Of a DNA stretch of 64,000 nucleotides, positions 12,020 through 61,601 are shown piece after piece. Origin of the DNA: Eledone cirrhosa (lineage: Eukaryota); assembly GCA_964016885.1 (NCBI GenBank), contig OZ024759.1, positions 18,848,001 through 18,912,000 of the forward strand. Reading direction: 5' to 3'. The position numbers were made by a program, and so were the translations under genes. The notes under the pieces are model-generated. The model saw only the letters and a program-made list of their open reading frames with translations, made no database searches and was not told the DNA's origin. The first letter of the stretch is position 1. Each line of letters starts with the position of its first letter.

Positions 12020-12200
12020 TGAAAAGATTCAGGACTCCTCCGGCCGTTTCGATATATAGATCCGAACTGTTCGGATCTAGCTTTCGAAATGGCCGGAGGT
12101 CAGCCGTGGGGGTCCTCAATCTGTTCATATTACCCACTCTACTACCCCAAGTATCGAGTACTCTGGTCTGTTATGGTCTAACTGGTTTTTACCACACCCT
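12020..12200 (+). mobile_element. TA-embedded fold-back element family (other copies 21128-21320, 38888-39050, 39078-39280)
   Basis: Shared CGAAACGGC..GAGCTC.GCCGTCGGGGTC..CCCACTCTACTACCC.AAGTAT.GAGTACTCTGG; three copies have a 5' inverted partial duplicate. Confidence 0.8.
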
Positions 12201-12250
12201 ATATTATATATATATAGTTAAAAGAATAGAGGTGTAACACACAAGTTATT

Positions 12251-12631
12251 ATATATTGGTAAACGGAATAGAAAATGCTGACAAATTGTTCACAGTTGAA
12301 AAATGGTTTAATTAGGAATAAAAGAGTATTAGTGATTGTATGAGTTAGTATTCAGTTGTGGCTTTAAGTTTTTAAGTTTTTACCGGTTGCGCATTTCTAA
12401 ATGCTTTTCAAAAATAATTTTGAGATAGAGTGTCCGTGTTCAGAGCAAACAACACGGACACTCTATCTCAAAATTATTTTTGAAAAGCATTTAGAAATGC
12501 GCAACCGGTAAAAACTTAAAAACTTAAAACCACAACTGAATACTAACTCATACAATCACTAATACTCTTTTATTCCTAATTAAACCATTTTTCAACTGTG
12601 AACAATTTGTCAGCATTTTCTATTCCGTTTA

Positions 12632-12640
<9 letters not shown>
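12251..12640. repeat. 190-bp-arm inverted repeat with 10-nt loop
   Basis: 12251-12440 versus 12451-12640; one substitution seen; ends in (TA)n. Confidence 0.97.
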
Positions 12641-12684
<44 letters not shown>

Positions 12685-14272: not shown

Positions 14273-14330
<58 letters not shown>

Positions 14331-14332
<2 letters not shown>

Positions 14333-14898
14333 TGAGCGGAACAAGTAATCATCAAACAATCTTTTAAATGAATTAAAAAACGATTTAAATATTCACCTAT
14401 TCTATTGCCGTTACCGACGGTTTCACTAATAAAAAGATATGAAATTCAAAGAATTTCCAATGGAAAGAATTAGATCTTCAGACAGCTATTTCCGTACTAT
14501 AAGGGTATAAAGCCTCACAGTAAGATAATATATCGCTTCCTGCCCGTTGTATGGGGTCAGGCCGTTAAAGTGACCTACACACAAAAATAGGCCATAAGTA
14601 AAGGCGGGATATTATAAACTTGTTGATCATGCCGCTAAAAATAGCAGCGCGATACAACGTTTTGTTCTCTACATATAGGAGAATAATTATAAAAGGGTAT
14701 GGATATTCCAACAGGCACTAGGTACCTACAGAAATATGCATGGTATTGATAATAGTTGTGGTTCGATGGTACTAATTTGAGATACCAGAACTATAAAAAT
14801 GAGCGGAACAAGTAATCATCAAACAATCTTTTAAATAAATAAAAAAAACGTTTTAAATATTCACCTGTCCTATTGCCGTTACCGACGGTTTCACTAAT

Positions 14899-14900
<2 letters not shown>
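14331..14900 (-). mobile_element. HHR-bearing element with ~100-bp terminal direct repeats (pLTR/retrozyme-like, family C)
   Basis: 14331-14430 is repeated at 14798-14898; (TA)n on both sides; no ORF. Confidence 0.75.
14404..14489 (-). ncRNA. Type I hammerhead ribozyme motif (family C)
   Basis: ATAGCTGT-CTGAAGA-T CTAAT..ATTAG T-GAAA-CCG T CGG-TA^ACGGCAAT on the minus strand. Confidence 0.8.
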
Positions 14901-14944
<44 letters not shown>

Positions 14945-22440: not shown

Positions 22441-22886
22441 GTTTTCACGGTATTTTTGACTAAAGGAATTGTAGCCTGATAACGGGGTTTAGAACCCTCA
22501 GATAAATGGAAAAAGATGTGTATTGACGTACATGGGAGTCGAACCCACATCTTTGGTTATCGCGACCATTGTGCTACCATTACACCAACACATTACCCAT
22601 CCCCTTCTATTCAAATTAGAAGCTACATTCTTAGCGAGTTTAAATGGCAAGTAAGTATGTTTTGAAACAGTGAGCAGGTTTGAAATTAGAAAATAGAATA
22701 GCTTTCACGGTATTTTTGACTAAAGGAATTTTAGCCTGATAAAGGGGTTTAGAACCCTCAGATAAATGGAAAAAGATGTGTATTGACGTACATTTTATCA
22801 GGCTAAAATTCCTTTAGTCAAAAATGCCGTGAAAGCTATTCTATTTTCTAATTTCAAACCTGCTCACTGTTTCAAAACATACTTAA
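22441..22886 (-). mobile_element. TA-embedded element with 260-bp tandem unit, terminal inversion and internal tRNA-like cassette
   Basis: Direct repeat 22443-22533 / 22703-22793; 22793-22885 is the reverse complement of ~22652-22743. Confidence 0.75.
22524..22596 (-). pseudogene. tRNA-derived sequence (A and B boxes; weak acceptor stem)
   Basis: TGGTGTAATGGTAGCAC..TGGT..ACCA..GTGGGTTCGACTCCCAT: D arm and T arm pair. Confidence 0.65.
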
Positions 22887-32151: not shown

Positions 32152-32292
32152 ATTGACCTGAGTCCTGGAGTGTTACCTTTATTTGTACTCAGGGATTTGT
32201 AGGGACAGACGGTGTATCTAAGGGCATTTCTTAACATCTGGAGCCCATTTCCTCTCCAAGTCTGAATACAGCAGATTTCTTCCAGAGAAGGG

Positions 32293-33326
32293 TATAGAGA
32301 GGGTAGGAATAGACGTAAGAAAGGTATAGAGAGGGTAGGAATAGACGTAAGAAAGGTATAGAGAGGGTAGGAATAGACGTAAGAAAGATATAGAGAGGGT
32401 AGGAATAGACGTAAGAAAGATATAGAGAGGGTAGGAATAGACGTAAGAAAGGTATAGAGAGGGTAGGAATAGACGTAAGAAAGGTATAGAGAGGGTAGGA
32501 ATAGACGTAAGAAAGATATAGAGAGGGTAGGAATAGACGTAAGAAAGATATAGAGAGGGTAGGAATAGACGTAAGAAAGATATAGAGAGGGTAGGAATAG
32601 ACGTAAGAAAGGTATAGAGAGGGTAGGAATAGACGTAAGAAAGGTATAGAGAGGGTAGGAATAGACGTAAGAAAGATATAGAGAGGGTAGGAATAGACGT
32701 AAGAAAGATATAGAGAGGGTAGGAATAGACGTAAGAAAGGTATAGAGAGGGTAGGAATAGACGTAAGAAAGATATAGAGAGGGTAGGAATAGACGTAAGA
32801 AGGGTATAGAGAGGGTAGGAATAGACGTAAGAAAGATATAGAGAGGGTAGGAATAGACGTAAGAAAGATATAGAGAGGGTAGGAATAGACGTAAGAAAGA
32901 TATAGAGAGGGTAGGAATAGACGTAAGAAAGATATAGAGAGGGTAGGAATAGACGTAAGAAAGGTATAGAGAGGGTAGGAATAGACGTAAGAAAGGTATA
33001 GAGAGGGTAGGAATAGACGTAAGAAAGATATAGAGAGGGTAGGAATAGACGTAAGAAAGATATAGAGAGGGTAGGAATAGACGTAAGAAAGGTATAGAGA
33101 GGGTAGGAATAGACGTAAGAAAGATATAGAGAGGGTAGGAATAGACGTAAGAAAGGTATAGAGAGGGTAGGAATAGACGTAAGAAAGATATAGAGAGGGT
33201 AGGAATAGACGTAAGAAAGGTATAGAGAGGGTAGGAATAGACGTAAGAAAGATATAGAGAGGGTAGGAATAGACGTAAGAAAGATATAGAGAGGGTAGGA
33301 ATAGACGTAAGAAAGATATAGAGAGG
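32293..33326. repeat. 32-bp minisatellite, 32 copies plus a partial
   Basis: Unit TATAGAGAGGGTAGGAATAGACGTAAGAAAG(G/A). Confidence 0.97.
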
Positions 33327-60717: not shown

Positions 60718-61373
60718 TGGCAGTATCGGTAGAGGGTCGGACACCATGCTTTGCAGCATAGAGTTACGGCCCTTTACGGTCTAAGTTCAAATCCCGCCGA
60801 GGTTAACTTTGCCTTTCATCCTCACTGGGTCGATAAAGTAAAACACCAGTAACGTACTGGGATCGATTTAATCGACTTTCCCCTCCCCACAAATGACTGA
60901 CCTTGAGCCTATACTAGAAATCTTTATTATTGTTATTATTAGTTATTATTATTGTTATTATTATTGTTATTATTATTTAGGGCGGTGGATTGGCAGCGTC
61001 GGTAGAGGGTCGGACGCCATACTTTGACGTATAGAGTTACGGCCCTTGCCATTCTGTGTTCAAATCCCGCCCAGGTTAACTTTGCCTTTCATCCTTACGG
61101 GGTCGATAAAATAAAGTACCAGTAATGCACTGGGTAATTGCTGGCCTTGTGCCAAAAGTAGAAACAATTATTGTTATTATTAGTATAAAGGCGGTGAATT
61201 GGCAGTATCGGTAGAGGGTCGGACGCCATGCTTTCCAGCATAGTTACGTCCCTTTACGATCTGAGTTCAAATCCCGCCGAGGGTGACTTTGCCTTTCATC
61301 CTTACGGGGTCGATAAAATAAAGTACCAGTAATGTACTGGCTAATTGCTGGCCTTGTGCCTAACGTAGAAACA
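60718..61373 (+). mobile_element. Three head-to-tail young major SINEs
   Basis: 60718-60920 (long form), 60979-61170 and 61188-61373, joined by (TTA)n tails. Confidence 0.95.
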
Positions 61374-61601
61374 GTTAACAATTTAAATCCATTCTTTAAT
61401 CGAAATTTCGAATGCTTAGTAGAAATTTCGAATGCCAAAAGTAGAAACAATTGTTATTGTTGTTACTGTTATTGTTATTATTATTATTATATAAATAATA
61501 AAAATCTTTACACGCACAAAACCCACAACGTACCGTCCTGTACCGTACTGTGCCGTCTGTAATGTTTTTCTTGATGTCAGCCCTAGTGGCCAATAAAGAA
61601 A

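Follow-up and report, generated by a model that had tools for sequence, protein, structure and literature searches.

What kind of element lies on the minus strand of the Eledone cirrhosa genome between two (TA)n tracts, where one complete and one half hammerhead ribozyme (HHR) stand 468 nt apart with no open reading frame (ORF) between them? The insertion occupies positions 14329 to 14900 of a 64,000-nt window of contig OZ024759.1, the window being the whole stretch of DNA that was analysed, with positions counted from its start. A reading of the sequence alone had proposed that it was either a retrozyme monomer or the terminal repeat, or pseudo-long terminal repeat (pLTR), of a Penelope-like element (PLE). 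When the 3.0-Gb genome (1796 contigs) was searched for relatives, the result favoured the first proposal. With moderate confidence, the element is a non-long-terminal-repeat (non-LTR) retrozyme, likely copied into (TA)n by the reverse transcriptase (RT) and endonuclease of a PLE, which likely read round a circular monomer RNA.

The insertion and its family

The features of the window copy are given below, with q1 denoting the base that directly follows the predicted cleavage site.

14329..14900, minus strand: entire insertion, 1.22 units of a 468-nt repeat, 5'-truncated
14412..14879, minus strand: monomer between both predicted cleavage sites, 468 nt, 35% GC, ORF-free
14875..14900, minus strand: upstream 3' half-hammerhead without a core of its own, comprising GAAA (14892-14889), palindromic stem III (ACC-GUC-GGU), GUA ending at 14880 and the 3' strand of stem I
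14880/14879, minus strand: predicted cleavage site of the half-hammerhead
14407..14486, minus strand: complete type I hammerhead
14486-14482 with 14411-14407, minus strand: its stem I, GCUGU with ACGGC
14481-14475, minus strand: its core, CUGAAGA
14474-14469/14430-14425, minus strand: its stem II, a U-U closure and 5 pairs
14424-14421, minus strand: its 3' core strand, GAAA; GUA ends at 14412
14412/14411, minus strand: its predicted cleavage site
14441..14457, minus strand: extra hairpin GAAAUUC/GAAUUUC within the stem II loop, 7 bp in the window copy
14494-14489, minus strand: conserved GGAAA ahead of stem I
14466-14461, minus strand: UUUCC(A) in loop II
14329..14432, minus strand: 3' terminal repeat, ending at putative priming site A, 83 nt beyond the cleavage site
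14797..14900, minus strand: terminal repeat at the 5' end, with 6 differences from its 3' counterpart
14792..14796, minus strand: internal copy of priming site A (q84-88)
14688..14692, minus strand: priming site B (q188-192) in an internal copy; the family's second fixed 3' end
14274..14330, no strand: (TA)n target tract adjoining the insertion's 3' end
14901..14941, no strand: (TA)n target tract adjoining the insertion's 5' end

Every coordinate in the sequence-only reading proved correct, and the second motif, whose predicted cleavage site is spaced 468 nt from the first, is borne out as a complete type I hammerhead. The 80 nt or so of repeat said to precede (TA)n measures 83 nt, with a 3' end at about 14329 and both ends of the insertion abutting (TA)n, and the supposed 1.2-mer amounts to 1.22 units with a terminal repeat of about 104 nt. 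The U-U closure of stem II and the hairpin in its loop were also recovered, the latter decayed here and 10 bp long, with compensatory changes, in most relatives. Nor does the unit contain an ORF, just as that reading held: no frame of the tripled window unit stays open for more than 51 aa, and across family units, which are short, 35% GC and non-coding, the maximum is 51-69 aa. Neither end of the insertion is set by cleavage, the 3' end lying at an internal priming site and the 5' end being a random truncation. The window copy is an old, ordinary family member; it has one complete and one half hammerhead, rather than the two consecutive complete ones that define an 'active' copy in Li et al. 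2026, and that its relatives do possess.

The window almost certainly holds one copy of an ORF-free, non-autonomous hammerhead repeat family. A DNA search of the genome returned 2490 candidates, and among the 40 that were scored the best other copies are 87-96% identical. Exact genomic copies of a 27-mer across the cleavage site of the window's subfamily number 66, against none for the reversed control; the 14-mer TGAAACCGTCGGTH is found at 1196 sites against 36 for its control, and a very young 457-nt subfamily accounts for 309 exact 30-mers against none. A further pattern occurred at 594 sites and its reversed control at 601, and therefore only inspected loci were used from that set, 29 of the first 30 being relatives at 66-85%. 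Units measure 457-491 nt between tandem sites, and head-to-tail dimers and multimers form arrays of 2-19 units, so that the tandem relatives proposed as a check are present and the unit is not single-copy. Arrays of at least three units occur in the youngest subfamily, and none was found in the window's older subfamily at any of its 66 sites. The family is also found in three contig runs from one sample, of unspecified kind, which have no bearing on expression. Duplicate loci were dropped throughout (13 before the first end-mapping, 22-25 in later analyses); L018, a near-duplicate of L017, was excluded from the variant tests, kept in the end tallies, and is not among the 18 classed pairs of arms described below.

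The hammerhead motif is not a chance occurrence, because the 27-mer is found 66 times against none and because the stems covary across subfamilies. In 31 aligned motifs, 32 doubly changed, compensated cells were counted for the named structure, where shuffles gave 13.2 and 0 of 500 reached the observed number; the count of covarying pairs, 8 against 6.0 (56 of 500), is not significant. At the 103 sites compared, one pair of stem I is GC in 81, AU in 12 and UA in 4, the closing pair of stem II is U-U in 73 or G-C in 22, and hammerhead position 17 is A or C, while the register of lower stem II differs between subfamilies. These compensated stems suggest that the ribozyme structure has been maintained by selection. 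The invariance of stem III is no evidence in this respect, because the search patterns selected for that stem, and within the window's subfamily the core is barely better conserved than other non-diagnostic positions (2.7% against 3.5% variation), as is expected of decay after insertion. The GGAAA and UUUCC(A) motifs, both present in 83 of the 103 sites and without covariation, may possibly form a loop-loop pairing. An Rfam search of the window gave no hammerhead match at the gathering threshold or at E<=10.

Folding of the monomer, another check that had been proposed, gave a divided answer: the window monomer is more stable than shuffled sequences (z -4.0), but the active hammerhead fold of the window copy, at -9.4 kcal/mol, is not its predicted minimum of -12.8 kcal/mol. 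Stem III has a predicted energy of +0.4 kcal/mol as a lone 3-bp hairpin and of -11.3 kcal/mol as a duplex with a second copy; weak alone and strong as a duplex, it thus agrees with the double-hammerhead mode of action reported for animal HHRs (PMC4209133). Among 21 circular monomers that were folded, the stem III hairpin was dominant in none, and an inhibitory pairing between core and stem III was strongly predicted in 2. The upstream half-site of the window copy could presumably be cut only with the help of the downstream core.

Insertion ends and a candidate helper

One trace of how the family moved is the position of its ends. For 118 segments in 84 loci, 3' ends fall at site A (q80-94) in 75 and at site B (q190-199) in 25, and 5' ends are scattered around the unit. 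TATATA stands directly after 184 of 226 segments. One-armed insertions end at A in 45 of 53 cases, and two-armed inverted insertions pair an arm ending at A with an arm ending at B in 42 of 44 (17/18, 13/13, 8/9 and 4/4 in four sets, the last three counted by eye), the first set departing from a 50:50 expectation with p 7e-5. Sites A and B each carry a short TA microhomology, which alone does not account for priming because little use is made of TTTATA where it occurs in the window unit, at q267 and q374; hairpins are predicted around both sites, with little covariation (2 of 40 pairs). Two alternative 3' ends, variable 5' truncation, inverted arms and a microsatellite target are all PLE-like. 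One-ended tails and inverted arms are known features of PLEs (PMC8557442; PMC3846280), and a lizard PLE uses two internal RT start sites on both target strands (PMC11167929). The family was very probably mobilised by PLE machinery.

Candidates for the source of that machinery were sought by their GIY-YIG domain, which returned 10,595 genomic candidates, of which 150 were scored. The helper is likely the young Neptune/Nematis-type PLE family of L123/L124. Members of this family carry a minimal U3-A8 hammerhead-like motif, with an HHR-to-HHR period of 4979 nt in the autonomous L123, and have 3' ends at q82 and about q150 that are paired in 4 of 4 inverted loci. Three contiguous chimeras of unit and PLE, with no microsatellite between the two, all have the 3' end of the L123/L124 lineage. 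In one (L145), unit and PLE are joined at both HHR sites with 6 nt of microhomology; in another (L152), site A of the unit is joined to the PLE tail; and in the third (L224), one arm ends at site A of the unit and the other at the second end of the PLE. No chimeras with other PLE families were found among the families sampled. Joins exactly at the cleavage site are not common, with 1 exact match and 0 for the reverse join. Comparison of the unit with 45 PLE loci outside inserted unit copies detected no significant similarity, the two being alike only in a GAAACC..GGUA motif and its spacing to site A.

Other PLE sequences came to light in the same searches. At least three autonomous PLE families (among L099, L101, L109, L118, L124 and L139) have minimal hammerhead-like motifs with GAAACCGGU(A/C) as their end, and in two of these families the U3-A8 core is clear. 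Fragments of about 150-220 nt from the 3' end of the candidate helper, several of which start near one position (L031, L019, L061, L072, L079 and L096), are perhaps a short non-autonomous derivative. The window itself has, at 12200-12680, a two-armed inverted insertion of another PLE family's 3' end in (TA)n, up to 98% like L134, L108 and L106 and with a degenerate minimal hammerhead-like motif.

The template and the alternatives to a circle

What did the PLE machinery copy? Crossings of the cleavage site are free of indels in 109 of 109 cases, a sample partly selected for such crossings, and in 28 of 28 in an array retrieved with an upstream-only pattern. Of 137 5' ends, 5 fall at the cleavage site, where 3.6 were expected, which means that no accumulation is seen there. 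The template was therefore continuous across the site, either circular or an uncleaved RNA. Repeats from the same insertion differ by 5.9%, against 8.5% for random pairs. Rare variants are shared by tandem repeats of one insertion 28 times, where the null gives 2.8 (and at most 9 in 300 resamplings), and between arms 35 times against 3.2, while no fixed differences between 5' and 3' repeats were found beyond artefacts of the priming site and of gap placement. In the young subfamily, one insertion has two arms in inverted orientation, the longer with 19 sites and its end at A, the other with 9 sites and its end at B; 17 of its 26 units are identical. Private variants are fixed in all passes of an insertion: 19 of 19 in L237, 4 of 4 across both arms of L229, and in every pass of the large array. 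These observations suggest that each insertion passed through a bottleneck of a single monomer, for which a circle is the simplest form, and a circular RNA was probably the template. One variant of the 19+9 array (L209-L210, G000:C1:156425700-156438700), 194T>G, occurs in both arms, in 6 of the array's 28 passes, and was absent from all 62 passes elsewhere; its recurrence may be due to repeated misreading of one damaged template base, to gene conversion or to assembly error.

A cycle of movement can be proposed on this basis. Tandem copies would be transcribed, probably by RNA polymerase II (Pol II) or by read-through, which are favoured because six T-runs of 4-8 would stop Pol III. The hammerhead is predicted to cut after GUA/GUC, probably as a double hammerhead via the palindromic stem III, and cutting would release a 457-491-nt monomer that may then be ligated to a circle. 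As the insertion ends suggest, a PLE protein would nick (TA)n and prime cDNA synthesis at an internal position of the RNA, either site A (q~85) or site B (q~190), and both target strands would be extended, one from A and the other from B. The DNA copies pass the cleavage site without indels, extend for 0.1 to 19 units and have scattered 5' ends, from which we infer the circling of one template. A more specific scheme, held tentatively and at somewhat less than even confidence, is that the ribozyme-made circle directly templates a PLE RT dimer, the subunits of which start at A and B of the same circle. Both subunits would then roll with strand displacement, generating two-armed arrays of as many as 19+9 units in one event, and the retrozyme would copy the RNA architecture of its helper without its sequence.

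Several observations weigh against PLE-driven copying round a circle with the proposed helper. The chimeras are few (3 of 154 loci, one with the 6-nt microhomology), homology between the ends of unit and helper is not detectable (score 80 against 82+-6), the L123 ORF is split over two frames, and other TA-targeting PLE families are present that could be alternative helpers. Within arrays, certain variants reappear at a spacing of three units or in neighbouring units, a pattern suggestive of unequal exchange subsequent to insertion; such exchange could also homogenise units, and long arrays may include assembly error. The stall that is predicted after exactly one lap is not significant (10 against 37, p=0.10), and a double hammerhead is not consistently predicted, intermolecular stem III having P>0.8 in 9 of 21 two-site RNAs. 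A lizard PLE is reported to work in vitro mainly on unprocessed RNA and without need for HHR cleavage (PMC11167929), and 8 of 9 Xenopus retrozyme dimers failed to cleave (10.64898/2026.07.22.740005).

Part of this evidence also speaks for the best-surviving alternative, which we regard as unlikely: an uncleaved linear multimeric transcript of the same PLE-mobilised family was the template, conversion or unequal exchange homogenised the units, and the HHR processes transcript ends or cuts rarely. The dispensability of cleavage for the lizard PLE, the absence of a 5'-end pile-up at the cleavage site, the period-3 and adjacent shared variants and the existence of long source arrays would all be accommodated. 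It agrees poorly with private variants that are common to both inverted arms and within 1.2-1.9-unit copies, with the lack of fixed 5'-versus-3' repeat differences beyond artefacts, with a scattered variant of the large array that is not mirrored between arms, and with the occurrence of long arrays in the youngest rather than the older copies. Less probable still is a self-cleaved linear monomer, with the PLE RT, on reaching the 5' end, jumping back to a 3' end, either of that monomer or of a different one. Such jumps account for the monomer bottleneck equally well as a circle, and the unit-PLE chimeras show that templates are switched, in one case exactly at both HHR sites, yet the junctions are precise and 5' ends have not accumulated at q1.

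That the repeat is an ordinary 5'-truncated terminus of an autonomous PLE, the other half of the original proposal, is very improbable, even though every insertion hallmark is PLE-type. Upstream of the ribozyme, family copies run only into further unit, up to 19 times. Five RT-bearing queries had matches at 5 of 156 unit loci, each beyond a unit 3' end or across a microsatellite, and, as judged from segment maps and flanks, an RT ORF is joined to the 5' end of the unit in 0 of 156; the family is therefore not an ordinary PLE terminus. The sequence-only reading would have abandoned the retrozyme had an RT ORF always been attached; it is the PLE terminal repeat that falls, and the retrozyme, multi-copy and with self-closing arrays of up to 19 units, that stands. 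The autonomous PLEs seen also have a different, minimal U3-A8 motif and the 4979-nt period. Two candidate joins were rejected: the unit adjoining a PLE ORF at L124 is a separate insertion with about 220 nt of (TA)n between, and what lies upstream of L151 is not an ORF but a different abundant repeat. A satellite, or a DNA-level mobile repeat with a relic ribozyme, is scarcely credible, since, for all the tandem arrays and signs of DNA exchange, dispersed copies with fixed 3' ends, variable 5' truncation and inversions bear the marks of retrotransposition, and the ribozyme stems covary.

Other repeats, and comparison with known systems

Further repeats were seen in the window and at the loci inspected. 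The window includes a tRNA-like match at 22524-22594 on the minus strand (Rfam, 36 bits, imperfect pairs), perhaps the head of a short interspersed element (SINE) or a pseudogene; a minisatellite at 32286-33326 (32-bp, 32.5 copies, 98% matches); and, at 60960-61377, a SINE-like sequence as two 207-bp tandem copies. Elsewhere, a 327-bp repeat (L155-L178; 5444 candidates), whose copies are often paired in inverted orientation at distances of 0.4-3.4 kb, resembles a DNA transposon's terminal repeat. A different hammerhead, in inverted arrangement, with a CUGAUGA core, a long stem II with UUUCCA and a stem III of ACC-UCAUGG-GGU, is found at L139:820-1110 and likely represents another retrozyme-like family.

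By sequence criteria, applied at the level of the family, the Eledone repeat is a new member of the non-LTR retrozymes. Like those described from animals (PMC7229834; 10.64898/2026.07.22.740005), it is ORF-free, has a GC content below 45%, consists of tandem units that range from monomers to long multimers, has one type I HHR per unit with a C3-G8 core and a short palindromic stem III, and coexists with PLEs. Its unit of 457-491 nt exceeds the 170-400 nt in Cervera & de la Pena 2020 (PMC7229834) and falls inside the 51-972 of Li, Clavereau & Pollet 2026 (10.64898/2026.07.22.740005); the extra 10-bp hairpin in loop II distinguishes it from the animal families. RNA circles and cleavage have been shown for the retrozymes of coral, mussel and axolotl (PMC7229834; 10.64898/2026.07.22.740005), whereas the Eledone family is known from DNA. 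A plant LTR retrozyme, with a type III HHR in its LTRs, a primer-binding site (PBS), a polypurine tract (PPT) and a 4-bp target-site duplication, was rejected on the type I topology and microsatellite ends, PBS and PPT not having been separately searched. A literature search, with supplements and subscription papers outside its reach, returned no earlier account from an octopus-type host or of the pairing of A and B arms in retrozymes.

Mobilisation of retrozymes by PLEs was proposed in the same two sources (PMC7229834; 10.64898/2026.07.22.740005) on the grounds of co-occurrence and pLTR similarity; in the Eledone family the grounds are insertion anatomy and chimeras, without sequence homology to the helper. 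Endonuclease-bearing (EN+) PLEs of the Neptune/Nematis type have a C-terminal GIY-YIG domain and a CX2-5CxxC linker (Craig et al. 2021, PMC8557442). The family shares with EN+ PLEs partial tandems, inverted 5'-truncated arms, a one-ended 'tail', microsatellite targeting and an HHR upstream of the 3' ends (PMC8557442), and differs from them in having a unit without an ORF. Its tail of about 104 nt compares with the 30-40 nt described for EN+ PLEs (PMC8557442) and about 65 nt in the local PLE, and its hammerhead core is canonical, whereas that of the local PLEs is the minimal U3-A8 variant (described in PMC4209133). The Poseidon PLE of Anolis (Frangieh et al. 2024, PMC11167929) likewise has two internal RT starts downstream of the HHR that define the tail, and likewise extends both target strands. 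For Poseidon, initiation is described as non-homologous to the target and the template as linear and uncleaved (PMC11167929); unlike it, the Eledone units have TA microhomology at both sites, their arms use different sites, and copying extends over many units.

Movement of animal retrozymes with a circle as template was proposed in 2020 and argued again in the 2026 preprint, without a transposition test in the portion of its text available to us (10.64898/2026.07.22.740005). In Eledone, a very young retrozyme subfamily occurs with a young candidate helper, their ends have matching architecture and chimeras link them, and the pair can therefore be tested together in vitro. The strict pairing of A and B in inverted arms informs how the tails and inverted ends of PLEs themselves arise, and the family as a whole preserves unusually clear footprints of PLE-driven, and probably rolling-circle, copying.
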